From an uncultured Pseudomonadales bacterium (GTDB lineage: Bacteria > Patescibacteriota > Microgenomatia > UBA1400 > CG1-02-47-37): 48,295 nucleotides of DNA. The stretch spans positions 1-48,295 of the forward strand of contig CAYICL010000003.1 of assembly GCA_964361885.1 (NCBI GenBank), read 5' to 3'. A program made the position numbers and the translations under genes. Of the stretch, positions 4,908-42,786 are shown in pieces (the first letter of the stretch is position 1; each line of letters begins with the position of its first letter). A model generated the notes under the pieces. The model was not told the origin of the DNA. It saw only the letters and a program-made list of their open reading frames with translations, and searched no databases.

Positions 4908-5991
4908 AACGACTCAAAAAAATGTCATTAGTGAGACCGTTCAAGTCTTAAAACTTGGCGGTCTGGTCATCTATCCTACCGAAACCTGCTATGGCGCCGG
5001 CGTTGACCCCACCAATCAGCCGGCAGTTAATAAACTTTTAGCCTACAAACATAAGCGCGAAGGCCGGCCGATATCTGTGGCCGTGGCTGATGAACCAATG
5101 GCCAGCAAATACGTTAAATTAAATCCCACGGCTAAAAATTTATATCAAAAATTCCTGCCCGGACCATTGACCGTTGTTTCCGCCGGCCGTCATCAACTCG
5201 CCTCTGGCATCGAGTCAGAACTCGGCACTCTTGGTATCCGGATTCCTGACCACCTGCTGGCTTTGGCAATTGTCAAAAAATTCGGTAAACCAATCACTGC
5301 CACCTCTGCCAATGTTTCTTATAAACCCCGGCCTTACTCGATCAAACAACTCTTAAAAAATACTTCCAAAAAACAGCAAAGCTTAATTGATTTAATTATT
5401 GACGCCGGCCAGTTACCCAAACGGCCGGTGTCCACCATTGTCGATACCACTCTTGACGACCCGCTAATCATCCGCCAAGGCAAAATTACTCTATCACCCC
5501 TATCACACCTCGGGAGTGTGATCAGGGTGATCAGTAAATCGCCGCAGCAAACCATTAAGTTGGCTCAAACCCTTTGTCTTAAATACTGGAAAGACCTGCA
5601 GACCAAACCGATTATTTTTCTTCTCATCGGCGAGTTAGGCACTGGCAAAACCCAGTTTTGCAAAGGCATCGGAAAATTCTTACAAATCAAGGCCAATATC
5701 AATTCCCCCACGTATACTATTGAAAAAGAATACGACTTTAACCGTTATCAAGTTAAAGGCAGGTTTTTGCACTTAGACACCTGGCGTTTACAAAACATCG
5801 AGGAATTTGATCAACTAAACCTTAAAGCCCGCTTCCTGCCTAAAACCGTCATCGCTGTTGAATGGGCTTCAAGAACCTTAAAACCCCTTTTAGATCTGGC
5901 TCGTCAAACCCAGACTAAAGTCATTATGGTTAAACTGCAAACCGTTTCCGGATCTTCTGCATCTCTTCGGCAGATAACCGTCTGCTGCTAG
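4879..5991 (+). CDS. tsaC: Fusion protein: L-threonylcarbamoyladenylate synthase (TsaC/YrdC/Sua5 domain) plus t6A ATPase TsaE
   Basis: N-terminal half has LKLGGLVIYPTETCYGAGVD (YrdC motif). C-terminal half has the P-loop GELGTGKTQFCKGIG, SPTYTIEKEY and HLDTWRL (TsaE motifs). An alternative start ATG at 4894 (MRIIKT) is plausible. Confidence 0.8.
   Translation: MPEKHMRIIKTTQKNVISETVQVLKLGGLVIYPTETCYGAGVDPTNQPAVNKLLAYKHKREGRPISVAVADEPMASKYVKLNPTAKNLYQKFLPGPLTVVSAGRHQLASGIESELGTLGIRIPDHLLALAIVKKFGKPITATSANVSYKPRPYSIKQLLKNTSKKQQSLIDLIIDAGQLPKRPVSTIVDTTLDDPLIIRQGKITLSPLSHLGSVIRVISKSPQQTIKLAQTLCLKYWKDLQTKPIIFLLIGELGTGKTQFCKGIGKFLQIKANINSPTYTIEKEYDFNRYQVKGRFLHLDTWRLQNIEEFDQLNLKARFLPKTVIAVEWASRTLKPLLDLARQTQTKVIMVKLQTVSGSSASLRQITVCC
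5493..5533. repeat. 41-nt imperfect palindrome centred on CACCTCGGGAGTG, forming the TsaC-TsaE inter-domain linker
   Basis: ATCACCCCTATCACAC-CTCGGGAG-TGTGATCAGGGTGATCA. The arms match at 14 of 16 positions. Confidence 0.75.
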
Positions 5992-6331
5992 CCGCTTTCC
6001 GCCAACCTTCCCAGATTTTATCCCAGCTTCCTTTTGTATCCGGCATTAAATGTAAATGGGCATGGGCTACTTCATTGCCGATAGTCACGCTCACCACCAT
6101 TTCTTTGCCGGAAACAGTTTGCATTTTTTTAACGATTTTCTGGGCCACTTTGTATAAGTCACCAATACCTTCAAGCTCCCAAACCCAACGATAATGTTTT
6201 TTAGGAATTACTAAAGTATGGCCATCCACTATCTGGGAAATATCCAAAAAAGCCAACCAATCCTTATCCTCGTAAATTTTATAGCAGGGAATCTCTCCTT
6301 TAACAATCTTGCAAAAAATGCAACTGGTCAT
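5930..6331 (-). CDS. HIT (histidine triad) family nucleotide hydrolase
   Basis: CIFCKIVKGEIP...DGHTLVIPKKH...HAHLHLMP histidine-triad motif. Confidence 0.85.
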   Translation of the reverse strand: MTSCIFCKIVKGEIPCYKIYEDKDWLAFLDISQIVDGHTLVIPKKHYRWVWELEGIGDLYKVAQKIVKKMQTVSGKEMVVSVTIGNEVAHAHLHLMPDTKGSWDKIWEGWRKAASSRRLSAEEMQKIRKRFAV

Positions 6332-6339
6332 ATATAAAG

Positions 6340-6345
6340 TATAAT
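6340..6345 (+). promoter_or_regulatory. -10 box (TATAAT) 7 nt upstream of ATG 6353 (tsaD), suggesting a leaderless start
   Basis: Read directly in the 21-nt HIT/tsaD divergent spacer. Confidence 0.35.
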
Positions 6346-6352
6346 ACCATAT

Positions 6353-7473
6353 ATGAAATCGCCATTAATTTAGCCATCGACACTTCCTGCGACGAAACCT
6401 GCGCCAGTGTTTCTTTTGGCCGCCGGATTTTATCCAATGTCATCTCTTCCCAAATCAACATTCACCAAAAATATGGCGGCGTTGTCCCGCACCTGGCCAA
6501 ACGGGCCCATCAGGAAAAAATCGAGCCTGTCGTTAAAGAGGCAATAAAAAGGTCTGTCCTTAAAGGACTCAAGTTGCGTCAGCAACCTGAAAAGAATTCA
6601 AAAAGGACAGACCTTTCTGGAATAAGCGCCATCGCCGTCACCGTCGGTCCGGGCTTGGCTCCGGCCCTTGAAGTTGGTATTAACTTTGCCAAAAATCTTG
6701 CCCGCCGGCTCAAACTCCCGTTAATTGCTGTCAATCATATGGAAGGCCACCTCTTATCCTGCCTTGCCTTGCCTCACACTCCCGGAGTGAAATCTTCAAA
6801 CACTCCGGGAGTGAAATTCCCCGCTCTCGGCCTGCTCGTCTCCGGTGGTCACACCCAGTTGGTTTTAGTCAAATCCATTGGTCTATACCAACTTTTGGGT
6901 GAAACTTTGGATGATGCAGCCGGTGAAGCTTTGGATAAGCTTAGTAAAATGTTAAAACTCGGCTATCCCGGCGGCCCGATTATCGAACAACTAGCTAAAC
7001 AATCCGCCGGCTGGCGGACCAGCACCATCCCCTTACCCGTCCCTTTGCAACATTCCCAAGACTTAAACTTCTCTTTTTCCGGTTTAAAAACCGCGGCTCT
7101 TTATACCATTCAAAAAGTTTACAAAGGACGGACCTTTGTAAAAAAACAATTCACTTACGACTTATGCGCTGCTTTCCAAACTGCCATTGCTAAAAGCTTA
7201 ACTGTCAAACTCCAAAAAGCGATTGAGCAATACCAACCAAAAAGCATTTTGTTAGGCGGCGGGGTGTTTTCCAATTTATATTTCCGTCGCCAAATCCGCT
7301 CGGCTGTTAAACCATTTCAACTACCTCTTTATCTTCCCTATTCCAAAAAACTTTTTACTGACAATGCTGCCATGATTGCCGTTCCCGCTTACTTTAAATT
7401 TCTTAAAAAAGACTTTGTCAAAAACATTAAGACCCTGGACCGCCAACCAAACCTTAACTTTGATACAATATAG
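6353..7473 (+). CDS. tsaD: tRNA N6-adenosine threonylcarbamoyltransferase TsaD (Kae1/Gcp family), with apparent 1-nt frame problem at codon 2-3
   Basis: The conserved N-terminus LAIDTSCDETCASV...GGVVPHLAKRAH...AVTVGPGL lies in frame 1 upstream of the listed TTG at 6574. HMEGH metal site and SGGHTQL are present. The only nearby ATG (6353) is one base out of frame. Confidence 0.8.
6548..6616. repeat. 69-nt palindromic cassette inside tsaD (14-bp perfect inverted repeat AAAGGTCTGTCCTT / AAGGACAGACCTTT), REP-core variant
   Basis: Read directly. Inner hairpin GTTGC-GTCA-GCAAC at 6573-6586. Encodes KRSVLKGLKLRQQPEKNSKRTDL. Confidence 0.85.
6777..6813. repeat. Family-2 doublet variant CACTCCCGGAGTG-N11-CACTCCGGGAGTG in tsaD
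   Basis: Read directly. Encodes TPGVKSSNTPGV. The spacer is the reverse complement, 10 of 11 nt, of the 303-339 spacer. Confidence 0.85.
7117..7143. repeat. REP copy (GTTTACAAAGGACGGACCTTTGTAAA) inside tsaD, in frame (VYKGRTFVK)
   Basis: Direct reading. 10-bp stem TTTACAAAGG/CCTTTGTAAA around ACGGA. Confidence 0.9.
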
Positions 7474-7477
7474 GCAA

Positions 7478-7552
7478 GTCCCTATAGCTCAACGGATAGA
7501 GCCCAGGTTTCCTAAACCTGTAATGAAGGTTCAATTCCTTCTGGGGACACCA
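7478..7552 (+). tRNA. tRNA-Arg (anticodon CCT), CCA encoded
   Basis: Manual cloverleaf: acceptor GTCCCTA/TGGGGAC, D arm GCTC-AACGGATA-GAGC, anticodon arm CAGGT-TTCCTAA-ACCTG, T arm GAAGG-TTCAATT-CCTTC, discriminator A plus CCA. Confidence 0.85.
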
Positions 7553-8091: not shown

Positions 8092-8167
8092 CGGGGTGTA
8101 GCGCAGTTGGTAGCGCGCTACGTTCGGGACGTAGAGGCCGGCGGTTCGAATCCGCCCACCCCGACCA
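8092..8167 (+). tRNA. tRNA-Pro (anticodon CGG), CCA encoded
   Basis: Manual cloverleaf: acceptor CGGGGTG/CACCCCG, D arm GCGC-AGTTGGTA-GCGC, anticodon arm CTACG-TTCGGGA-CGTAG, T arm GGCGG-TTCGAAT-CCGCC, then A plus CCA. Confidence 0.85.
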
Positions 8168-14189: not shown

Positions 14190-15968
14190 CTACATCCGCT
14201 CCGGCGTGGCAATCCCCAGTAAACCCAAACCTTTTTTAATTATCTCGGCCGTTGCCTGAGTCAGCCACAGCCTGAACTCTTTTACCTCTTTTTCCGCCTT
14301 TAAAATCCGGTGCCGGTTGTAAAACCCATTATACTTTTGAGCCAAATCATATAAGAAATTGGCTACCAGATTTGGCGCCAACTCCGCCGCCGCCTGGCTG
14401 ACCACCTCTTCATACCGATACAACGTCCGCAGTAATAGGTCTTCCTCTTTTGAATAAGGTCCGACCTTGAGCGCCTTTGGCGCGTCCCGACGAATGTCGG
14501 GACTCAAGGTCGGACCTTTACTCAGCACGCTCTTGGCTCTGGCGTATGTATACTGCAGATACGGCCCTGAGTTACCCTCTAAACTAATCGATTCGTCAAA
14601 ATCAAAAGCCATGTCTTTGGTCCTGCCCACTTTTAAAATACTGTATTTAACTGCTCCCACTCCGATTTTTTCCGCTACTTCGTCAATGGAGGCTGTTTCC
14701 ACTTCGCTCTCACCTGACCGTTTCATAATTTCTTTAGTTTTTCCCACTGCTTGATCCAGCAAATCATCAATATATACCACCATACCTGTTCTTGAACTCA
14801 TCCTGCCCTTACCCTTAAGACTCATCCAGCCATAACTCACATGCTGACACTCTTTGATCTTCACTATCCCTAGCTGTTCGCAGACCGCAAACATCTGTTT
14901 TAAAGCTAATGACTGCTCCGGTCCGATCACCCAAAAAAGCTTATCCGGTTTAAAGGTCTCCTTTTTTAATTTGGTCAAAGCTAAATCCTGAGTAATATAC
15001 AAAGCCGTACCGTCTGCTTTAATCACCACCGTGTCCGGAATGCCGTACTTGGTTAAATCCGTGACGATTGCCCCTTCTTTTCCTTTTCTAAACACGCCTT
15101 TCTTCAAACCTAGCTCCACCAAGTCCTTCCCTTGCTGATAATGCTCATGCTCATGCCAAACCCTGTCCCATTTATTTCCCAGTCTCTTCAGCGTCAACTC
15201 CTGCCCCTGGTAGGAATATTCCAGTACCTTTGCCCATAAAGCCCGGTTCTTCTTGTCTCCGGCTTCCCAATCTATCACCATTTGCCTGACCGCCTTTTCT
15301 GTATCAGCTGTTTTACAATCCTCACTGGCCTTAACATATAACTCGTCTACAAATCTATCCGGCCTCATCTTGGCATTTTCCGGAGTCTGCCATTCATCCT
15401 GATGGTCATACCAATAATTAAGATCAATCATTTGCTTCTTTTCTTTGTGGCCAAACCTTAAATATCCCCACATTAATTTGGCAATGGCAATTCCCCGGTT
15501 ATTATCAACACAATCTCTGACCACCTGGCAACCTAAGGCTTCGAAAATATTCGCCAAGGCCATACCGATAATATTGTTGGTTAAATGTCCTAAATGCATG
15601 GCTTTATTAGGATTAGGTGACGTGTGTTCCACTAAATATTTTTTCCCCTGATAAGGTTTCTTCTCATCACCAATTAGCACTTGATTAATTTGATTGATAA
15701 GAACGTCACTTTTGATTGATATATTAATAAAACCTGCTCCGGCAACACTGATTTTTGAAGCTATTTTTTTCATGCTATCTTCGGCTTTTAACTTAGCTGC
15801 AATTGCTTCAGCTGTTTCTCGGGGTGACTGGCTTTTTAACGCCACATTGCAGCTATAATCCCCAAACGCCATGTTCTCCGGATGCTCCACAATAAACTTG
15901 GCTTTTTCTAATTTGAGTTCTTTTAAAATCTTCTCTATATTCTTATAAATCTGATGTGATAATTCCAT
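14190..15968 (-). CDS. argS: Arginine--tRNA ligase
   Basis: HTSPNPNKAMHLGHL (HIGH region), MSSRTG (KMSKS-like) and a C-terminal anticodon-binding domain ending ...ERM. Carries a 63-nt in-frame palindromic cassette at 14456-14518. Confidence 0.9.
   Translation of the reverse strand: MELSHQIYKNIEKILKELKLEKAKFIVEHPENMAFGDYSCNVALKSQSPRETAEAIAAKLKAEDSMKKIASKISVAGAGFINISIKSDVLINQINQVLIGDEKKPYQGKKYLVEHTSPNPNKAMHLGHLTNNIIGMALANIFEALGCQVVRDCVDNNRGIAIAKLMWGYLRFGHKEKKQMIDLNYWYDHQDEWQTPENAKMRPDRFVDELYVKASEDCKTADTEKAVRQMVIDWEAGDKKNRALWAKVLEYSYQGQELTLKRLGNKWDRVWHEHEHYQQGKDLVELGLKKGVFRKGKEGAIVTDLTKYGIPDTVVIKADGTALYITQDLALTKLKKETFKPDKLFWVIGPEQSLALKQMFAVCEQLGIVKIKECQHVSYGWMSLKGKGRMSSRTGMVVYIDDLLDQAVGKTKEIMKRSGESEVETASIDEVAEKIGVGAVKYSILKVGRTKDMAFDFDESISLEGNSGPYLQYTYARAKSVLSKGPTLSPDIRRDAPKALKVGPYSKEEDLLLRTLYRYEEVVSQAAAELAPNLVANFLYDLAQKYNGFYNRHRILKAEKEVKEFRLWLTQATAEIIKKGLGLLGIATPERM
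14456..14518. repeat. 63-nt nested palindromic cassette inside argS (15-bp perfect inverted repeat AAGGTCCGACCTTGA / TCAAGGTCGGACCTT enclosing two hairpins)
   Basis: Read directly. Inner hairpins GCGCC-TTT-GGCGC (14471-14483) and GTCCCGAC-GAAT-GTCGGGAC (14484-14503). Confidence 0.9.
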
Positions 15969-16753: not shown

Positions 16754-18157
16754 ATGAAAATCGTTATTGGCTACCCGCCGATTAAATCTTCAAAAGGCGT
16801 TCCGCTTTTATCCCAAAACCGCCAGTTCCAGTGGTTTTCTTCCCCTACTTACGTCTACCCGGTTATTCCTGCCTCAGCCGCCACTTTATTAAAAACCAAT
16901 GGTTATCAAGTCAGCTGGCTGGACGGTATTGCCGAAAACTGGAGCTATAACCAATGGTTTAACCAATTACAAGCCGAGTCGCCAGACTTGCTCTTTATCG
17001 AAACCAAAACTCCGGTGATCAAACAACACTGGCAGATCATCAAACATCTAAAATCTAAAATCCCTGATCTAAAAATCTGTTTGGCCGGTGACCACGTCAC
17101 TGCCTTACCCAAAGAATCGTCTAAAAACTGCCCGGTTGATTATATTGTTGTTGGCGGCAACTATGATTTATCTTTACTTTCTATAGCAAACAGTATCAAC
17201 AAAACTAAACAAAAAGTTTACCAAGGACGGACCTTTGTAAATTTACCATTCATCGATCGGCAGTTAACCAAATGGCGTCTCTATGCTTACAAAAACGGCA
17301 ACTTTAAATTTACCCCGGCTGCTTACACCATGGCCGGCCGCGACTGCTGGTGGCGTCAAAACGGCGGCTGTACTTTTTGCTCCTGGACCACCCTTTTCCC
17401 CAAATTTATGGTCCGCACTCCAAAAAATCTTTTAGACGAAATCGACCAGCTCATCAAATTAGGCATTAAAGAAGTCTTTGACGATACCGGAACTTTCATG
17501 ACCGGTAACTGGTTAAAACAGTTCTGCCAAGGCATGATCAAGCGTGGCTATAATAAAAAAATCGTTTTTGGCTGCAACATGCGCTTTGGAGTTTTAACTC
17601 AAAAAGACTATTACTTAATGGCCAAAGCCAATTTTAGATTCCTTCTTTTTGGTTTAGAATCAGCCAGTCAAACCACCCTCGACCGCCTAAACAAAGGCAT
17701 TAAAATCAATCAAGTTGAACCAGAATTAAAAATTATTAAATCTGCCGGCGGCCGACTTGAACCTCATGTTACTTGTATGGTCGGCTATCCCTGGGAAAGT
17801 TTAGCCGACGCTCAAAATACCGTTAACTTTACCAAAAATCTCTTTAAAAAAGGCTTAATCAGCTCACTCCAAGCCACCATTGTCATCCCCTATCCCGGCA
17901 CCAAACTCTTTGCCCAAGCCAAGAAAAACCATTGGCTCAAAACTTTGGACTGGAATAAATATGACATGCGCCAACCAATCCTTAAATCCCCTATCCCCGA
18001 TAAAAAACTGATGCAGCTCACCCGGAATATTTACCTTAGCTGTTTCACTCCTCAATTTATTTTCAAAAAATTGCTCTCGATCCGCTCTTTGGCTGACATT
18101 AAATTTTTATTTAGATCGGTCCGAAAATTCGTCGGCCAGCTGCTGGATTTTTCATGA
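16754..18157 (+). CDS. B12-binding-domain radical SAM protein
   Basis: N-terminal Rossmann-like B12-binding region; Cys cluster GRDCWWRQNGGCTFCSW; radical-SAM core (FGLESASQTTLDRLNKG). REP copy in frame at 17216-17241, in the inter-domain linker. Confidence 0.7.
   Translation: MKIVIGYPPIKSSKGVPLLSQNRQFQWFSSPTYVYPVIPASAATLLKTNGYQVSWLDGIAENWSYNQWFNQLQAESPDLLFIETKTPVIKQHWQIIKHLKSKIPDLKICLAGDHVTALPKESSKNCPVDYIVVGGNYDLSLLSIANSINKTKQKVYQGRTFVNLPFIDRQLTKWRLYAYKNGNFKFTPAAYTMAGRDCWWRQNGGCTFCSWTTLFPKFMVRTPKNLLDEIDQLIKLGIKEVFDDTGTFMTGNWLKQFCQGMIKRGYNKKIVFGCNMRFGVLTQKDYYLMAKANFRFLLFGLESASQTTLDRLNKGIKINQVEPELKIIKSAGGRLEPHVTCMVGYPWESLADAQNTVNFTKNLFKKGLISSLQATIVIPYPGTKLFAQAKKNHWLKTLDWNKYDMRQPILKSPIPDKKLMQLTRNIYLSCFTPQFIFKKLLSIRSLADIKFLFRSVRKFVGQLLDFS
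17216..17241. repeat. REP copy (GTTTACCAAGGACGGACCTTTGTAAA) inside the radical SAM gene, in frame (VYQGRTFVN)
   Basis: Direct reading. One mismatch to consensus. Confidence 0.9.
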
Positions 18158-18975
18158 ACCACTCAATCGCCACGATCATTAACTACTGCTCTAATGATTA
18201 CCGCTTTCTGCGTTTTAATATCCTGCAGATTAAAAAGTTCAGCCAGCAAATCATTGTTCCCTATTGTGACCATTTTTACGACGGCTCCCCGGAAAATAAG
18301 GCCGTCATTCAAACCACAATTAAGGTCAATCCCCAAGCACGATTTATTGAATTTCCCTACAACCCCCAAGCCACTCGCAGTCTTTGGCGCGGTTGGCAAT
18401 TTCTCCTCCGCTATCTTGGCCGCGGCCGCGTCTTTGGCCCGCAGTACTGGATCTGCTTCGCCCGTCAACTTGGTTATCAGACAATTAAACCGCCGGTTGA
18501 ATATGTTTTGTTTTTGGATGCTGATGAAATTATCAACGGCCGAAAATTTCTAGACTGGCTTAACACCAACCAATATAAAAAATTTAACGCTCTTAAACCA
18601 GCTAATTATTGGTACTGGCGCTCCCCTCGTTATCAAGCCACGGTTTGGGAGGATTCGCCTTTGCTGGCTAAATATTCCTGCCTGAAAAAGGCTGTTTTTA
18701 TGGACCATGATGAAAGAAATGCCACTTATCACTCCCTGCCTTTCCCGAAAACCAGAATGGTTTTAGGTCTGGACCAAAAACCGATGATTCATCACTACGC
18801 TTGGGCCAAACCGAAAGCTAATTTATTAAAAAAAGTGGCCTGCTGGGGCCACACCAAAGATAGAAACTGGACTAAACTTATCCAAACAGAGTTTTCCCAT
18901 CCCTTTAATGACACTGACTTTATCTACAAGAGACAGTATAAAATCGTTAAGCCTTTCTTAAAACCAGCCGCTTAA
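18154..18975 (+). CDS. Putative glycosyltransferase-like protein (DxD motif)
   Basis: VLFLDADEIING DxD-type motif. Overlaps the radical SAM stop by 4 nt and sits in the glycan island. Confidence 0.4.
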   Translation: MNHSIATIINYCSNDYRFLRFNILQIKKFSQQIIVPYCDHFYDGSPENKAVIQTTIKVNPQARFIEFPYNPQATRSLWRGWQFLLRYLGRGRVFGPQYWICFARQLGYQTIKPPVEYVLFLDADEIINGRKFLDWLNTNQYKKFNALKPANYWYWRSPRYQATVWEDSPLLAKYSCLKKAVFMDHDERNATYHSLPFPKTRMVLGLDQKPMIHHYAWAKPKANLLKKVACWGHTKDRNWTKLIQTEFSHPFNDTDFIYKRQYKIVKPFLKPAA

Positions 18976-23605: not shown

Positions 23606-23998
23606 ATGATTCAAATTAAAGTCGGCGGTAAACTGATTGCTTTAATTATCAAAGCTAAAACTCAACCCAAGATAAATCAGTTTATAACTGATCCTCACAA
23701 TCCTCTCCAGCTGGGCTTTCTCCGATTTTCTAAAAATCGCCAAGTAAAGCCCCACCAACACCGCGCTCTTGATAAAACCACTCACCAAAATCAGGAATTT
23801 ATTTATGTTGTCTCCGGCCAAATTCTGGCTGAATTTTTTTACAAAGGACGGACCTTTGTAAAACATCTGCTTAATCCCGGAGATTGCTTATTGCAACTAC
23901 AAGGCGGCCATGGGTTTACCATGCTTAAACCCACCAAGCTCATTACCATTAAGCAAGGTCCTTACTCCAGCCGCCAGCGCGAAAAAATCGAAATATAG
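23606..23998 (+). CDS. Cupin-fold protein (WbuC/sugar-modifying cupin-like)
   Basis: I place the start at ATG 23606 (MIQIKVGG) rather than the listed 23426, which would run through the divergent gene's start. HQH...QEFIYVVSG...GDCLL...GGHGF is a cupin pattern. REP copy in frame at 23838-23863. Confidence 0.5.
   Translation: MIQIKVGGKLIALIIKAKTQPKINQFITDPHNPLQLGFLRFSKNRQVKPHQHRALDKTTHQNQEFIYVVSGQILAEFFYKGRTFVKHLLNPGDCLLQLQGGHGFTMLKPTKLITIKQGPYSSRQREKIEI
23838..23863. repeat. REP copy inside the cupin gene, in frame (FYKGRTFVK)
   Basis: TTTACAAAGGACGGACCTTTGTAAAA read directly. Confidence 0.9.
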
Positions 23999-24966
23999 TC
24001 TTCGGCTATCTTATCCCAGCTAAACTGTTTGAGCCACTGCTCTGGTCGATACCGCTTTTTTGATAAAGCTAATTTTAATTTTTCCACGTACTCTTCTCCC
24101 CAAACATCTTTGACATAAATCCCATAATCACCCAATATTTCTCTTCTTAACTCATCATCCGTCGCTACTACCGGCAAACCTGAAGCCAGCGCCTCTAAAT
24201 AGACAATGCCAAACGCTTCGGTCGAATCGCTGACTAAAGTAAACACATCCGCTGCTCGATAGACCGCCGGCATCGCTTCATGTTTAAATTTTTTCCCTCC
24301 TCCGGCCCACAACAAATTTACCGCTCCGAAGCCCTGCCTTGCCGGCAGGCAGGCTTGGCGAAGGGCGGCTACCGCCCTTCTAGTCGCTTCCACCCGTTTA
24401 TATTTATCTTCCGAAGCAACGCATAAAATTATTGGCCCCTTCAATTTTAGGTCCAATTTCCCACCCTCAGGCTTAAACCGTTGTAAATTTACTCCGTTAG
24501 GAATCACTTCAATCCTGACTCCCCGGCCGTAAAACTTTTTCGCCCAGCGCCGATTTCTTTCGCTTAAAGCCACAAACACATCCGGCCGCATCAGTAAATT
24601 CCACCCGTCGCACCAACCTAAACCCGCCTGTCCGCTAATCACCAGTTTGGCACCGGTTTGCCAGCAAAACAAACGGCATAATAAACTCTGCCAGCCGCCG
24701 TTAAATGGCATGATTATATCCGGTCGCCACGGCTTTAATTTTTCCAGCGCCTGCCGCGTTTCCCACCGCATTGTCCGGTGATACTTGTCAATCATCAAAG
24801 TCTTTAACCAAGGACGGACCTTTGTAAAAGATTGCCAGTCGACTGAATTGACACTAATTACTTTTACCTGGTGCTGCTTTTGCCAGCGCCGACTCAGTTC
24901 TTTCACTACCGTCTCTACCCCCCGATCAATTCGGCCACTGGTAAACGATAAAACCGCAATTTTCAT
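23962..24966 (-). CDS. GT4 (GT-B fold) glycosyltransferase
   Basis: MKIAVLSFTSGRIDRGVETVV...SDSTEAFGIVYLEALASGLPVVATDD (E-x7-E type motif). Confidence 0.8.
   Translation of the reverse strand: MKIAVLSFTSGRIDRGVETVVKELSRRWQKQHQVKVISVNSVDWQSFTKVRPWLKTLMIDKYHRTMRWETRQALEKLKPWRPDIIMPFNGGWQSLLCRLFCWQTGAKLVISGQAGLGWCDGWNLLMRPDVFVALSERNRRWAKKFYGRGVRIEVIPNGVNLQRFKPEGGKLDLKLKGPIILCVASEDKYKRVEATRRAVAALRQACLPARQGFGAVNLLWAGGGKKFKHEAMPAVYRAADVFTLVSDSTEAFGIVYLEALASGLPVVATDDELRREILGDYGIYVKDVWGEEYVEKLKLALSKKRYRPEQWLKQFSWDKIAEDYISIFSRWRLE
24803..24829. repeat. Degenerate REP copy inside the GT4 gene (minus strand reads FTKVRPWLK)
   Basis: TTTAACCAAGGACGGACCTTTGTAAAA. The left arm is altered relative to consensus. 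Confidence 0.8.
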
Positions 24967-35546: not shown

Positions 35547-36291
35547 GTTTACAAAGGACGGACCCTTGTAAACTATGTATAATACAAATATGCCTGCCAA
35601 AAATATTATCAAAACCTATATTCAAAACGGTTATTATCACCTTTATAATCGCGGAGTCAACAAACGAAACATCTTTAAAAATCAGCAAGATTACGGTGTT
35701 TTTCTTGGCTACTTGAAACAATATCTCTCCCCAAATGATAAAAATCCTTGTTTAAGAAACATCACTGTTAAAAACAAAGTTTATAAAATTCTGACTCCCC
35801 CATGTAAAAACTATCATCATGATATCAAACTCCTGGCTTACTGTTTAATGCCTAATCATTTTCATTTATTAATTAAACAATTTTCCGAAAGAGGCATTGC
35901 CTCACTGATGAAATCTCTCGGCACCCGCTACACCATGTACTTTAACAAACGTTACCAACGCACCGGTCCTTTATTCCAAAGCCGTTATAAGGCCGTTTTA
36001 ATTGATAACGAAAACCAGCTGCTTCATCTCTCCCGCTATATTCATCTTAATCCCCTACCCAAAAACCCAACTCAACCCTCTAGTTATCCTAATTATCTTG
36101 GTCTAAACCATGCCACTTGGATTCAGCCCCAAGAAATCCTTACTTTCTTTAAAACCGCCCGCAAAACCAATCTGAATGATATTAGTTCATATCAAAGTTT
36201 TATTGAAGACTATTCTGAACCGCCTAAAACATTTTTAGAAAACCTTACCCTTGATTAGATTGTTTACAAAGGACGGACCCTTGTAAACTAT
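35547..36291 (+). mobile_element. REP/RAYT unit: IS200-like Y1 (HUH) transposase gene bracketed by two identical 27-nt (30-nt with flank) palindromic REP copies
   Basis: GTTTACAAAGGACGGACCCTTGTAAACTAT occurs at 35547-35576 and 36262-36291 in direct orientation. The unit fills the gap between two convergent gene ends exactly. Confidence 0.8.
35575..36258 (+). CDS. REP-associated tyrosine transposase (RAYT; IS200/IS605 TnpA-like Y1 HUH enzyme)
   Basis: YHLYNRGVNKRNIF, HUH motif in LMPNHFHLLIK, FQSRYKAVLI and the catalytic-Tyr region LSRYIHLNP. The start may be ATG 35590 (MPAKN), which lies 6 nt after a TATAAT. Confidence 0.8.
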   Translation: MYNTNMPAKNIIKTYIQNGYYHLYNRGVNKRNIFKNQQDYGVFLGYLKQYLSPNDKNPCLRNITVKNKVYKILTPPCKNYHHDIKLLAYCLMPNHFHLLIKQFSERGIASLMKSLGTRYTMYFNKRYQRTGPLFQSRYKAVLIDNENQLLHLSRYIHLNPLPKNPTQPSSYPNYLGLNHATWIQPQEILTFFKTARKTNLNDISSYQSFIEDYSEPPKTFLENLTLD

Positions 36292-39814: not shown

Positions 39815-40390
39815 TTAATAAACCGCTACCTTTTCCTTAATCGCTTCATACACATTACTTTTCACCGCTTTTTTTGTCAGCAACTCCTCCACTGACCCAT
39901 ACGGCCGGTTTGAAATAATCTTTTCTGCCGTGGCCGGCCCCACTCCCCAAAGCGTATCCAGCTCGGCGCTTGACGCGGTATTGATGTTTACAAAGGACGG
40001 ACCTTTGTAAACATTTTGAGAAGGTCCGTCCTTATTGGATTCTTCTTGACTCGGAATATATACCTTCTGGCCGTCAACAATTTTGGCAGCCAAATTTAAG
40101 TTTTTATTCAACCATTCCCTGTCTGCTTTTTCTCCTAAGCCGCCGGCGACGACTAAGGCATCATTCATTCTGGCTCCAAGGCTTAACTTATACAATCCGG
40201 GCTTCATCACTGCTCCGGCTACATCCACATACACATACACCTCTTTTTCCTGCTCTACGATCTCTACCCCTCTATCAGTCGCTTTATTGCTGATCAATAT
40301 TGCTGAAAACACTCCGACAATCAATAACAGTATTCCCGCCAATCCCACGGTCAACCAATATGGTTTGGCTTTCAATTCCTTTATCCTCAT
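39815..40390 (-). CDS. comEA: ComEA DNA receptor (SLBB domain plus helix-hairpin-helix)
   Basis: VAGAVMKPGLYKLSLGARMNDALVVAGG (SLBB) and INTASSAELDTLWGVGPATAEKIISNRPYGSVEEL (HhH). The REP doublet sits in the inter-domain linker. Confidence 0.8.
   Translation of the reverse strand: MRIKELKAKPYWLTVGLAGILLLIVGVFSAILISNKATDRGVEIVEQEKEVYVYVDVAGAVMKPGLYKLSLGARMNDALVVAGGLGEKADREWLNKNLNLAAKIVDGQKVYIPSQEESNKDGPSQNVYKGPSFVNINTASSAELDTLWGVGPATAEKIISNRPYGSVEELLTKKAVKSNVYEAIKEKVAVY
39986..40033. repeat. REP doublet (full REP 39986-40012 plus inverted core AAGGTCCGTCCTT at 40021-40033) inside comEA
   Basis: Read directly. Encodes NKDGPSQNVYKGPSFVN on the minus strand. Confidence 0.9.
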
Positions 40391-42786
40391 ACCACCAGAT
40401 TCACCAGTTTTCCCGGCACAAACACCTCTTTGACTACTTTTTTCCCTGCCAAATAAACCTTCACCTTTTCGCTTAACTTAGCCATTGCCAGGACTTTTTC
40501 CTTATCACCGGCTTGTTCCCGATCCAACACCAGCCTGTCTCTAAGCTTAGCATTCACTTGAATTACCACTGTTACCGTCTCGCCCTTGGCAAACTCTTTA
40601 TCATATTCCGGCCAAGCTTGCTGATGCACCGAAAACTTACCTCCAAGCTTCTGCCACAACTCCTCGCTTATATACGGTGCCATCGGCGCCAATAGCAAAA
40701 TCAAAGTCTTAACTGCCTCTGAAAACACCTCCGAGGTGTGAACTTCTTTCACCTCGGAGGTGAATAATCTCTCCAACTCATTAACATACTCCATTAAAGC
40801 CGCAATCCCCACATTAAACCTAAACTCTTTCATTGCCTGAGTGACTCGCTTAACTGTCTGGTGTTGCAACCGACGCAAGCCTTCAAGGTCCGTCCTTGTA
40901 GGCTTATTGTTTACAAAGGACGGACCTTTGTAAACCAACTTCCACACCCGGTTTAGAAACCGCCTCATTCCTTTCATGCCTGTGTCTTGAAAATCACCGC
41001 CCTGATCATACGGCCCGATAAACATTAGATACATCCGCAAAGCATCCACTCCGTACTTATCTATATACTCATCCGGATTGACAATATTGCCTTTACTCTT
41101 ACTCATCTTGGCTCCGTCTTTAATAATCAAGCCGTGCCCATACAAAAACGGAAACGGCTCATCTCCCAAACTCTTAGGAATATAGCCAAAATCCTGCAAA
41201 GCCATCCAGATAAATCGGGAATACATCAGGTGCAGCACAGCATGTTCTGCTCCGCCGATATAAGCGTCAACCGGCAGCCACTTCTTGGTAACTTCCGGAT
41301 CAAAAGGCAAATTAGACACTCCCGAGGTGGCAGATTTTTTCACCTCGGGAGTGTGATTGACCGACGGATAGCGCAGGAAATACCACGAACTGTCCAAAAA
41401 TGTGTCGCTCACATCTGTTTCCCGTTTCGCTTTGCCTTTGCATGAAGGGCATTTGGTATATAACCAATCATCTCCGGCCTTCTGAAGCGGCGACTTGCCG
41501 TCTCCAGTCGGTTTAAAATCTTTGACGTACGGCAGTTTCACCGGCAGATTCTTTTCTTTTTCTGCTTGCCATTTACATTTCTCGCAATAAATCATCGGAA
41601 TCGGCGGCCCCCAGTACCGCTGCCGGCTGATACACCAATCCCTTAACCGGTAATTTATCTTTTTCCTCACTCCGCCTAATTTTGCCAACTGTTTAAAAAC
41701 TTCATCTTGATTTTTCAAAACATCTACTACCAATAACTTATGTTTCTTGGCAAAAGCCATATCTCTCTCGTCATGAGCCGGCACCCCCATCACCGCTCCG
41801 GTACCATAATCTTTCAGCACAAAATCGGCTATCCAAATCGGCATTAACTTGCCTGTTAATGGATGAGTCACTTTGTAACCAGTATCCACTCCCGTTTTAC
41901 TTTTCTCTCCTTCTTTTCTCTGTTGCTCAGTTTTATCTAAAGCTTTTTTTACATAATTCATCACTGCTTTATTTGTGGTCAAACTGCTCACCAAAGGATG
42001 TTCCGGGGCTAAACATAAAAAAGTGGCTCCAAAAATCGTGTCCAGTCTGGTAGTAAAGGTGGTAACTTTTTTATCCATGCCTTTAACTTGCCAGTCAACT
42101 TCGACTCCCTTGCTCCGGCCGATCCAGTTTCTCTGAACCGTCTTGATCTTCTCCGGCCAATCAATCTTGTCAATATTGTCTAAAAGTCTTTGAGCATACT
42201 TAGTTATCTTAAAAAACCACTGGAAAGTTTCTTTTTTTTCCGTCACGGTTTTACACCGCTCGCATAATCCGGCTTCTACCTGTTCATCGGCCAGCACCGT
42301 TTTGCATGACGGACACCAGTTAACCAAAGATTTCTTCCTATAAGCCAATCCTTTCTCAAACATCTTAATAAACAACCACTGGGTCCATTTATAGTATTCC
42401 GGATCATAAGTTTCTAACCGGTTCTCCCAGGAAAACCGGTTGCCGATCCGTGATAATTGTTCGTAAAAATGTTTCTCGCTAATCTTGGCTTGATCTGCCG
42501 GATGCTTAGCGATCTGAATCGCATAGTTTTCCGAGTGAATCCCAAACCCGTCCAACCCGATCGGCTCAAACACCTGATAGCCATTCATCGCCTTGTACCT
42601 GCCGTAAAAGTCTGCCCCGGTAAAAGCATACATATTGCCCACATGTAAACCCTCTGCCGACGGATACGGAAACATCATCAGGTTGTAAAATTTCTTCTTG
42701 GGGTTTTTCAAATCCACTTGATATATCTTGGCTTTCTGCCACTTTTTTTCCCACTTGGTCTCAATAGTTTTGGAATTATAATCCAT
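40387..42786 (-). CDS. leuS: Leucine--tRNA ligase
   Basis: PYPSAEGLHVGNMYAF (HIGH), CxxC zinc motifs, KMSKSKGN and RFLNRVWKLV. Three in-frame palindromic cassettes. Confidence 0.9.
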   Translation of the reverse strand: MDYNSKTIETKWEKKWQKAKIYQVDLKNPKKKFYNLMMFPYPSAEGLHVGNMYAFTGADFYGRYKAMNGYQVFEPIGLDGFGIHSENYAIQIAKHPADQAKISEKHFYEQLSRIGNRFSWENRLETYDPEYYKWTQWLFIKMFEKGLAYRKKSLVNWCPSCKTVLADEQVEAGLCERCKTVTEKKETFQWFFKITKYAQRLLDNIDKIDWPEKIKTVQRNWIGRSKGVEVDWQVKGMDKKVTTFTTRLDTIFGATFLCLAPEHPLVSSLTTNKAVMNYVKKALDKTEQQRKEGEKSKTGVDTGYKVTHPLTGKLMPIWIADFVLKDYGTGAVMGVPAHDERDMAFAKKHKLLVVDVLKNQDEVFKQLAKLGGVRKKINYRLRDWCISRQRYWGPPIPMIYCEKCKWQAEKEKNLPVKLPYVKDFKPTGDGKSPLQKAGDDWLYTKCPSCKGKAKRETDVSDTFLDSSWYFLRYPSVNHTPEVKKSATSGVSNLPFDPEVTKKWLPVDAYIGGAEHAVLHLMYSRFIWMALQDFGYIPKSLGDEPFPFLYGHGLIIKDGAKMSKSKGNIVNPDEYIDKYGVDALRMYLMFIGPYDQGGDFQDTGMKGMRRFLNRVWKLVYKGPSFVNNKPTRTDLEGLRRLQHQTVKRVTQAMKEFRFNVGIAALMEYVNELERLFTSEVKEVHTSEVFSEAVKTLILLLAPMAPYISEELWQKLGGKFSVHQQAWPEYDKEFAKGETVTVVIQVNAKLRDRLVLDREQAGDKEKVLAMAKLSEKVKVYLAGKKVVKEVFVPGKLVNLVV
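40726..40762. repeat. Family-2 doublet CACCTCCGAGGTG-N11-CACCTCGGAGGTG in leuS
   Basis: Read directly. Encodes TSEVKEVHTSEV on the minus strand. Confidence 0.85.
40885..40935. repeat. REP doublet (inverted core AAGGTCCGTCCTT at 40885-40897 plus full REP 40909-40935) inside leuS
   Basis: Read directly. Encodes VYKGPSFVNNKPTRTDL on the minus strand. Confidence 0.9.
41317..41353. repeat. Family-2 doublet CACTCCCGAGGTG-N11-CACCTCGGGAGTG in leuS
   Basis: Read directly. The arms are identical to the 303-339 copy. Encodes TPEVKKSATSGV on the minus strand. Confidence 0.9.

Follow-up and report, generated by a model that had tools for sequence, protein, structure and literature searches.

Resident REPIN-like hairpin doublets in the comEA and leuS genes of a groundwater Patescibacterium and their probable link to a divergent REP/RAYT system

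Background

REPIN/RAYT systems, in which repetitive extragenic palindromic (REP) sequences occur together with REP-associated tyrosine transposases (RAYTs), have been described in Pseudomonas, E. coli and others, and both the compensatory changes in REP doublets forming hairpins (REPINs) and the vertical inheritance of RAYTs are established (Bertels & Rainey 2011, PMC3116915). REPs and REP dimers are also found within open reading frames (ORFs) of known function in Opitutus, Rickettsia and others, where the intragenic dimers encode some 20-30 extra residues, an insertion that modular proteins were taken to tolerate (Di Nocera et al. 2013, PMC3733652). The stretch of DNA analysed here (the window, 48,295 nt of contig CAYICL010000003.1 from an uncultured bacterium) carries two doublets in its adjacent genes comEA and leuS, each composed of a full 27-nt REP and an inverted 13-nt core. 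We consider it probable that these doublets are resident REPIN-like hairpins of a REP/RAYT system that lie in insertion-tolerant linkers, with REP arms on one half only and with the two halves kept complementary to each other.

In-frame Rickettsia palindromic elements (RPEs) are the classic example of repeats of this kind. In the account of them given by Di Nocera et al., they are selfish palindromes of a reduced genome that are inserted in frame into functional genes (Ogata et al. 2000, cited in PMC3733652). As far as that account reaches, the elements of the window resemble RPEs as in-frame palindromic insertions at surface or linker positions of functional proteins; they differ in that RPEs are for the most part longer (RPE-1 has about 100-150 bp) and are described there with no linked transposase, whereas the window has a cognate Y1 transposase gene and belongs to another organism. 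In contrast to the GTAG/CGTC REPs of Di Nocera et al., the REP of the window is tagless and its hosts include aminoacyl-tRNA synthetases, tsaD and comEA, while orthologous persistence with covariation, as observed here, lies outside that description (PMC3733652). Since intragenic REP dimers, RPEs and the compensatory changes of REPINs have all been published, we do not regard these elements as a new kind. What is new is the phylum, the divergent transposase, the tagless REP, the near-exclusive intragenic location, the asymmetric doublets, and the orthologous persistence combined with rapid paired turnover; our literature search found no paper tying REP or RAYT to Patescibacteria.

Judging from the relatives of its LeuS, the host belongs in or near Candidatus Beckwithbacteria (Patescibacteria), with the closest LeuS beyond the same population showing 70-71% identity, and it is an ultra-small groundwater bacterium with a genome of roughly the 1 Mb class. 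A 19-mer scan of genome and metagenome contigs identified the other contigs of the source organism (L007, L012, L016 and L019), which are short and derive from Hainich groundwater; the stretches with REP sites in the independent assemblies L007, L012 and L019 are 99.9% identical to the window. Matches of the same scan in L003, L004, L006, L008 and L018 lacked the left arm of the REP and were rejected as chance. The gene order leuS-comEA-comEC-MBL is kept in the relatives L023-L026.

Architecture of the doublets in comEA and leuS

The REP is an exact 27-nt palindrome, GTTTACAAAGGACGGACCTTTGTAAAC, in which GTTTACAAAGG and CCTTTGTAAAC enclose the loop ACGGA to give an 11-bp stem with a 5-nt loop, and its 13-nt core has the pattern AAGG-N5-CCTT. 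Allowing up to three mismatches, the 27-mer was found at seven loci of the window against 0.00 expected from dinucleotide shuffles, and the core with up to one mismatch had 14 matches against 0.04 expected; an eighth, degenerate REP (24803-24829) was picked up by its exact 13-nt core. With expectations of 0.00-0.04, chance is therefore ruled out, including as a source of the inverted cores, in agreement with the earlier note on this DNA. More copies of the REP occur in contigs of the same sample and in relatives.

Both doublets were recovered exactly where the earlier note had placed them, with gaps of 8 and 11 nt between REP and core (Table 1), and both are in frame, as it had also stated, with lengths of 48 nt (16 codons) in comEA and 51 nt (17 codons) in leuS. 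On the + strand, the comEA doublet begins with the full REP (loop ACGGA), followed after 8 nt by the core (loop TCCGT), while in leuS the core (TCCGT) comes first and the full REP (ACGGA) follows after 11 nt. The reverse complement of the comEA doublet would be a core with ACGGA followed by a full REP with TCCGT, and thus the two doublets are mirror images rather than one unit in two orientations. Their spacers are unrelated (ATTTTGAG in comEA against GTAGGCTTATT in leuS). The inverted cores pair at 13/13 positions; the REP arms, by contrast, are present on only one half of each doublet, which in both genes is the half with loop ACGGA on the + strand, and the flanks of the other half match the arms at 2-3 of 7 positions, i.e., at chance level. 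The leuS core lies within a 27-nt hairpin of its own (40878-40904), whose outer stem AGCCT/AGGCT differs from the REP arms. Comparison with orthologous sequences shows the inverted core of comEA to be the partner half of a linker hairpin conserved in ComEA orthologues.

Table 1. Coordinates of the genes, REP copies, inverted cores and core-only doublets in the window
Feature	Position	Strand	Remarks
comEA	39815-40390	-	SLBB and HHH_3 domains
leuS	40387-42786	-	
Full REP in comEA	39986-40012	+	loop ACGGA on + strand; gene reads VYKGPSFVN
Inverted core in comEA	40021-40033	+	AAGGTCCGTCCTT; 8 nt after full REP; read KDGPS
Inverted core in leuS	40885-40897	+	AAGGTCCGTCCTT; 11 nt before full REP; read RTDL
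Full REP in leuS	40909-40935	+	VYKGPSFVN; variable linker between catalytic and anticodon-binding domains
RAYT-like Y1 (HUH) transposase gene	35575-36258	+	227 aa; HUH motif PNHFHLL; catalytic Tyr in SRYIHLNP
REP, CCCTT variant	35547-35573	+	fills spacer directly upstream of transposase gene
REP, identical CCCTT variant	36262-36288	+	directly downstream of transposase gene; 1-nt overlap with stop codon of convergent gene
Single full REP in tsaD	7117-7143	+	in frame, VYKGRTFVK
Single REP in B12-binding radical SAM gene	17216-17242	+	in frame, inter-domain linker, VYQGRTFVN
Single REP in small cupin-like ORF (probable gene)	23837-23863	+	probably in frame, FYKGRTFVK
Degenerate REP in GT4 glycosyltransferase gene	24803-24829	+	FTKVRPWLK
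Core-only inverted doublet in tsaD	6549-6615 (cores 6549/6603)	+	AAGGTCTGTCCTT, 41 nt, AAGGACAGACCTT
Core-only inverted doublet in argS (- strand gene)	14456-14518 (cores 14456/14506)	+	37-nt spacer, 16-bp arms

Persistence and paired turnover of the comEA doublet

A core doublet is present at the same linker position in 9/9 comEA orthologues read as DNA; outside the linker, five of these share 87-100% identity among themselves, while the other four have 60-68% identity with the window. REP arms on one half are confined to the window, L030 and L025. Among 80 distinct ComEA linkers, 41 show the doublet pattern and 39 do not, and the REP-arm peptide YKGPSFV was found in only six; P0222 and P0229 represent possible empty sites (..GETSLTDKININ in P0222 compared to ..GNSNKDRPSYDKGLSLTDKININ in P0125). 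Neither doublet of the window is a fresh insertion; that of comEA is shared with relatives at 60-68% identity, where it is mostly armless.

The sequence of the doublet changes rapidly while its pairing is maintained. The loop variants in comEA include ACGGA/TCCGT, TCGGA/TCCGA, ACAGA/(A)CTGT, ACGCA/(A)GCGT and TCGCA/(A)GCGA, and the halves are complementary at 11-13 of 13 positions across the orthologues. In the nine-sequence alignment, 94.9% of the cells are paired and 3/13 pairs have changed on both sides, whereas sliding the partner by 1-3 columns as a control reduces the pairing to 22-54%. Covariation reached 0.184 compared to 0.058 in shuffles (0/500 reach the observed value), in a test on nine sequences that takes no account of their kinship. 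The same signal is visible at the protein level: the central codons of the two halves are reverse complements of each other in 35 of 41 ComEA linkers (mean 8.6 and maximum 18 in 10,000 shuffles), with eight codon-pair types (G/P, S/L, A/A, S/E, T/V, R/L, E/S and V/T), and the outer variable position forms a D/S or V/T pair in 38/41. In comEA, the third position does not vary in 7/8 core codons, as against 25/186 over the whole gene. Together with the various ways in which the core is read in different genes, this indicates that the constraint acts on nucleotides rather than on the protein.

The variants of the doublet do not follow the comEA gene tree. Among relatives with 87-95% identity outside the linker there are four different doublet variants, each with halves complementary at 12-13 of 13 positions, while the REP-armed variant of the window recurs in L025 (64% identical) and that of L027 recurs in L024 (67%), with the same single mismatch and a spacer differing by one base. 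The comEA variant of L028 is the one found in tsaD of the window. In L024 and L026, the doublet of the comEA linker is followed by a third small hairpin (GACAAGG-TCGAA-CCTTGTC and GACAAGG-TTGGA-CCTTGTC), so that these linkers contain three REP-like cores each.

The leuS linker in relatives

In the LeuS linker, reverse-complement codon pairs (R/T, H/M and G/S) were found in P0015, P0009 and P0018, and other lineages carry other palindromic families in this linker, read as TSEV..TSEV, TPGV..TPGV and APRG..APRG. The linker of L025 holds CACTCCCGGTGTG and CACACCGGGAGTG, separated by 11 nt. The extended hairpin around the leuS core is kept by different outer stems in the window and L023, and the outer stem is broken in L027. 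In L030, which is ~91% identical, an in-frame deletion of 15 nt has taken out the leuS spacer together with a portion of the inverted core. Taken together, the doublets are persistent but dispensable. At the peptide level, VNNKPTRTDLE in the window (40860-40960) corresponds to VNKDLE in L030 (651-760), and the deletion looks like two slippage events (11 and 4 nt) or one complex event.

A RAYT-like gene flanked by the REP

The window contains one copy of a gene for a Y1 transposase, which matches Pfam Y1_Tnp (PF01797) with an E-value of 2.6e-13 and has the NCBIfam model 'REP-associated tyrosine transposase' (REP_Tyr_transpos, NF047646) as its best match; a sequence search of the PDB with the protein yielded no relative. 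On the basis of its sequence, it is predicted to be a divergent RAYT relative. The gene is tightly enclosed by two copies of the REP, one ending 1 nt ahead of the ATG and the other beginning 3 nt past the stop. The HUH and Tyr motifs are conserved in five orthologues, including those of L009, L023, L025 and L001, and in L009, L025 and L001 the gene is flanked by the same REP. Because REP copies tightly flank a Y1 transposase gene here and in relatives, the repeat qualifies as a true REP, as the earlier note had taken it to be. The more divergent orthologue of L023 is flanked by another hairpin, CACTTCAGGG-TTGAT-CCCTGAAGTG, as expected if enzyme and repeat co-evolve.

In L025 the transposase gene is syntenic with that of the window, with a TPR/PMT gene on one side and a glycosyltransferase gene on the other; it is elsewhere in the locus in L023 and missing from that locus in L024 and L026. 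The gene may be vertically inherited. Some Microgenomates genomes have two paralogues, and the family has more than 7,995 matches in the protein collection, with members in Beckwith-, Levy-, Curtiss-, Woese- and Shapirobacteria that are annotated only as 'transposase' or 'hypothetical'. The orthologue in L001 (~1730-2410, - strand), which belongs to another Patescibacteria genome, holds two in-frame copies of its own REP, read as NYKGRTFVRR and NNKGPSFVIR, in loops whose length varies among orthologues.

The system shares with the REPIN/RAYT systems of Pseudomonas, E. coli and others (PMC3116915) a palindromic repeat that flanks a Y1 gene present in one copy in the window, inverted doublets with a long hairpin as one of their predicted folds, compensatory changes between the two halves, and singlets beside doublets. 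It differs from them in that the elements of the window are almost all intragenic and in frame, with a variable geometry and one armed half and with neither shared spacing nor copies of a common unit; in addition, its transposase falls under the NCBIfam cut-off for RAYTs, and its host is a member of Patescibacteria with a genome of roughly the 1 Mb class. With TnpA of IS200/IS605 it shares the HUH/Y1 fold family (PF01797). Unlike IS200/IS605, however, the gene has no insertion sequence ends and no tnpB, is present in one copy in the window and is syntenic in L025, and the hairpins are dispersed 27-nt units rather than element borders.

Location and reading of the REP copies

Only the two transposase-flanking copies among the eight REPs of the window are clearly intergenic, and so the location of the repeat is, contrary to its name, not extragenic. 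Five of the six others lie inside identified genes or clear Pfam matches, while the sixth lies in the probable cupin-like ORF (Table 1), whose REP peptide is also present in L025 within a 139-codon ORF. Where domains are defined, the REPs sit between them: between SLBB and HHH_3 in ComEA, between the catalytic and anticodon-binding domains in LeuS, and between the B12-binding and radical SAM domains in the radical SAM protein.

Of the three frames in which the palindrome can be read, one runs into a TAA stop, and five of the six gene-borne copies encode YKG(R/P)(T/S)FV. The frame that would normally end in TAA is the one used by the GT4 copy, whose left arm on the + strand is altered so that the stop is gone. 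A third frame, LQR(TD/SV)LCK, is used in L010, L011 and L001, which excludes a strict 'phase 0 only' rule, and L010 has a REP in the same radical SAM linker in a different reading frame from that of the window. The core is read as KDGP, RTDL, KGRT, KGPS or KVRP depending on the gene, in at least five frame/strand combinations, which rules out a protein motif as its explanation.

The loop of the REP is oriented uniformly, with ACGGA on the + (C-rich) strand in 8/8 copies of the window, whatever the direction of the gene, and a rule that ties the orientation of the loop to the strand given by GC skew holds for all nine copies of the source organism. The Y1 family is known to use single-stranded hairpins, and this, together with the uniform orientation of the loop, suggests a strand-specific action of the transposase; one-strand hairpin recognition of the IS200/IS605 type would explain the orientation. 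In the window as a whole, GC skew is -0.17 to -0.32 in each 4-kb segment, independent of gene direction. A whole-chromosome G/C strand disparity in Beckwithbacteria and relatives was previously read as suggesting unidirectional replication (PMC7143001).

Other doublets and predicted folds

Doublets are not confined to comEA and leuS; further ones, whose absence would have counted against the earlier note, were found in tsaD, argS, L016, L001 and L011/L021. The 14-bp arms of the core-only doublet in tsaD are perfectly complementary, with the same loop variant on both sides. The argS element is 63 nt long, lies in frame in the DALR-domain linker, and folds as single-stranded DNA with -32.5 kcal/mol (z -10.3); its arms enclose two small hairpins, GCGCC-TTT-GGCGC and GTCCCGAC-GAAT-GTCGGGAC, in a predicted three-way fold, and the element may represent nested insertions. 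A third doublet of REP and core, with a 7-nt spacer, is present in a GT1 glycosyltransferase gene of L016 (same metagenome assembly), and full-full inverted REP doublets were found in L001 and L011/L021. The core-to-core spacing in the source genome is 20, 28, 31, 50 or 54 nt; accordingly, the comparison of spacings that the earlier note had called for revealed no uniform spacing in the REP-core family.

The suggestion in the earlier note that each doublet can fold into a longer hairpin was borne out only in part. For the sense RNA of comEA, the 13-bp long hairpin is preferred and is the minimum free energy (MFE) structure (-20.8 kcal/mol, z -5.7). As single-stranded DNA, by contrast, both doublets have two separate hairpins as the MFE structure (-14.5 and -18.9 kcal/mol), and two hairpins are also preferred by the leuS sense RNA (-27.4); the alternatives are nearly equal, the long hairpin being the centroid for single-stranded comEA DNA (-12.2). 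A G.T/C.A intermediate (Ala/Thr codon pair) was considered as a clue to the strand that folds and was dropped, as L026 and the transposase-flanking REPs disagree.

Interpretation and alternative explanations

In the mechanism that we propose, the Y1 transposase would bind the REP hairpin in single-stranded DNA and copy or move the REP. Since the genome has almost no intergenic space, REP elements would survive inside genes, in frame and stop-free, in linkers that tolerate 9-22 extra residues. The doublets of comEA and leuS would be long-resident loci of two inverted 13-nt cores rather than two insertions of one REPIN, and the half in the orientation common to active REPs would carry the full REP arms in the lineage of the window. 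The halves could be kept matched through replacement or conversion of the doublet as a unit from other copies, through template switching at the palindrome, which would correct one arm to match the other, or, as a third candidate, through selection acting on the hairpin. Replacement or conversion of whole doublets is favoured by the failure of the variants to follow the gene tree and by the occurrence of the same variants at different loci.

Several observations weigh against this interpretation and should be kept in mind. All counts for the window refer to 48 kb of genome, and the covariation test is blind to the kinship of its nine sequences. The transposase scores 49.8 bits against NF047646, for which the RAYT cut-off is 80, and the REP is free of GTAG and CGTC tags, its copies starting with GTTTAC or TTTTAC. 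The orientation rule for the loop is broken in L009, L022 and one copy in L025, and we therefore do not claim it as general. Moreover, the nine comEA sequences do not polarise the direction of change, i.e., whether arms were gained or lost. Finally, we saw no transposition event, no excision footprint and no clean filled/empty pair at high identity, so that mobility is something we infer rather than observe.

Among the alternatives, it is rather improbable that the doublets are classical REPINs, each inserted by a RAYT as one unit of two inverted REPs, with the core-only half being a decayed REP. The earlier note had leaned in this direction in treating the doublet as the mobilised unit. This view gains from the full-full inverted doublets of the same REP in L001 and L011/L021, from the co-variation of the halves, as in published REPINs (PMC3116915), and from the behaviour of doublet variants as exchangeable units; the recurrence of inverted doublets is a part of the earlier proposal that stands. 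That the doublets are copies of one mobilised REPIN does not fit the data. Those of comEA and leuS mirror each other, have spacers without any relation and only one armed half, and are old residents; most orthologous doublets are armless on both halves, and the spacing in the family is 20-54 nt instead of a fixed length. Furthermore, the decay of the core-only half would not be uniform: the sharp boundary between a core complementary at 13/13 positions and flanks that match the arms at 2-3/7 argues against passive decay of a full REPIN.

Going beyond our preferred reading, the core doublets might be sites at which the Y1 transposase or palindrome-directed template switching rewrites a short piece of coding DNA again and again, giving a rapid, hairpin-constrained turnover of linkers at fixed positions in essential genes of Beckwithbacteria, or they might be selected structures at domain boundaries. 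We regard this bolder proposal as rather improbable; if it were true, the REP system would have been domesticated inside coding sequence.

Selection on its own is a still less likely explanation. According to it, the 13-bp hairpins would be selected mRNA or DNA structures at domain boundaries, such as sites of translation pausing for folding or protein-binding or chromosome-structuring sites, and the likeness to REPs would reflect domestication. The persistence at 60-68% nucleotide identity, the compensatory changes and the frozen synonymous sites would all be accounted for, as would the stable long hairpin of the comEA sense RNA and the extended hairpin that the window and L023 keep around the leuS core with different outer stems. 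The inter-domain location is predicted equally well by tolerance of insertions, however, and template-switch correction yields paired changes without selection. Such a structure is also absent from 39/80 ComEA linkers, while in leuS the inverted core was lost through the 15-nt deletion of L030, the outer stem was lost in L027, and the linker of L025 carries an unrelated hairpin family.

We think it very improbable that the core serves as a sequence tag, be it for DNA uptake, as in Neisseria or Pasteurellaceae, or of another kind. Its density (~one core per 3.4 kb), the placement of copies in variable protein regions with preferred reading frames and the presence of ComEA and ComEC in the lineage are compatible with this idea, but the tight flanking of a Y1 transposase gene in four genomes is a REP/RAYT signature, and a tag would not need loop positions that co-vary between the halves. 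Chance, an assembly artefact or a conserved protein motif, for which only the small size of the motif speaks, can be practically dismissed in view of the 9-14 observed matches against 0.00-0.04 expected, the 99.9% identity of independent assemblies and the use of several frames on both strands.

Under our reading of resident REPIN-like hairpins, the range of REP/RAYT is extended to Patescibacteria, where the transposase family is very abundant, and a selfish hairpin repeat is seen to last in a genome almost without intergenic DNA by lying in frame within linkers of essential proteins. At the comEA and leuS sites, orthologous hairpins with numerous paired changes form a natural series, which could separate the causes of compensatory evolution in REPINs, namely structural selection, replacement of units and template-switch correction. 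They also carry a warning for annotation and phylogenomics, as linkers such as YKGPSFV, KDGPS/RTDL, TSEV..TSEV and TPGV..TPGV are derived from repeats and are not homologous protein.

Other hairpin families and features of the window

A second, unrelated hairpin family is present at 303-339, 6777-6813, 40726-40762 and 41316-41354, with a single 13-mer at 5506. It consists of CAC(Y)(Y)C-N-G(R)(R)GTG, a near-palindrome of 13 nt, and the reverse complement of this sequence after a gap of 11 nt, which gives a 13-bp stem; its geometry is always 13 + 11 + 13 nt, unlike that of the REP-core doublets. All copies are in frame and encode, for instance, TSEVKEVHTSEV in leuS and HTPGVKSSNTPGV in tsaD. The family is also found in the leuS linker of L025 and in many LeuS orthologues, and leuS of the window holds three hairpin elements in total.

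An Rfam scan of the window at gathering thresholds gave nothing but two tRNAs (7478-7549 and 8092-8164). The L022 contig is a mosaic relative to positions 17642-18927, with 99% identity over 510 nt and ~73% from the next gene on, and the comparison suggests a recombination breakpoint near 18151-18160. L022 also has a REP at a convergent gene junction where the window has none; a comparison of this REP with the corresponding empty site (window ~18977) was abandoned, as the convergent gene ends are too diverged for the junction to be defined. In tsaD, the reading frame is open from position 6322 or earlier, and the conserved N-terminus ..LAIDTSCDET.. is encoded in it (6322-6574), with no ATG, GTG or TTG start ahead of 6574; the likely reason is a non-canonical start, such as ATT or ATC near 6350, or a problem with the annotation.

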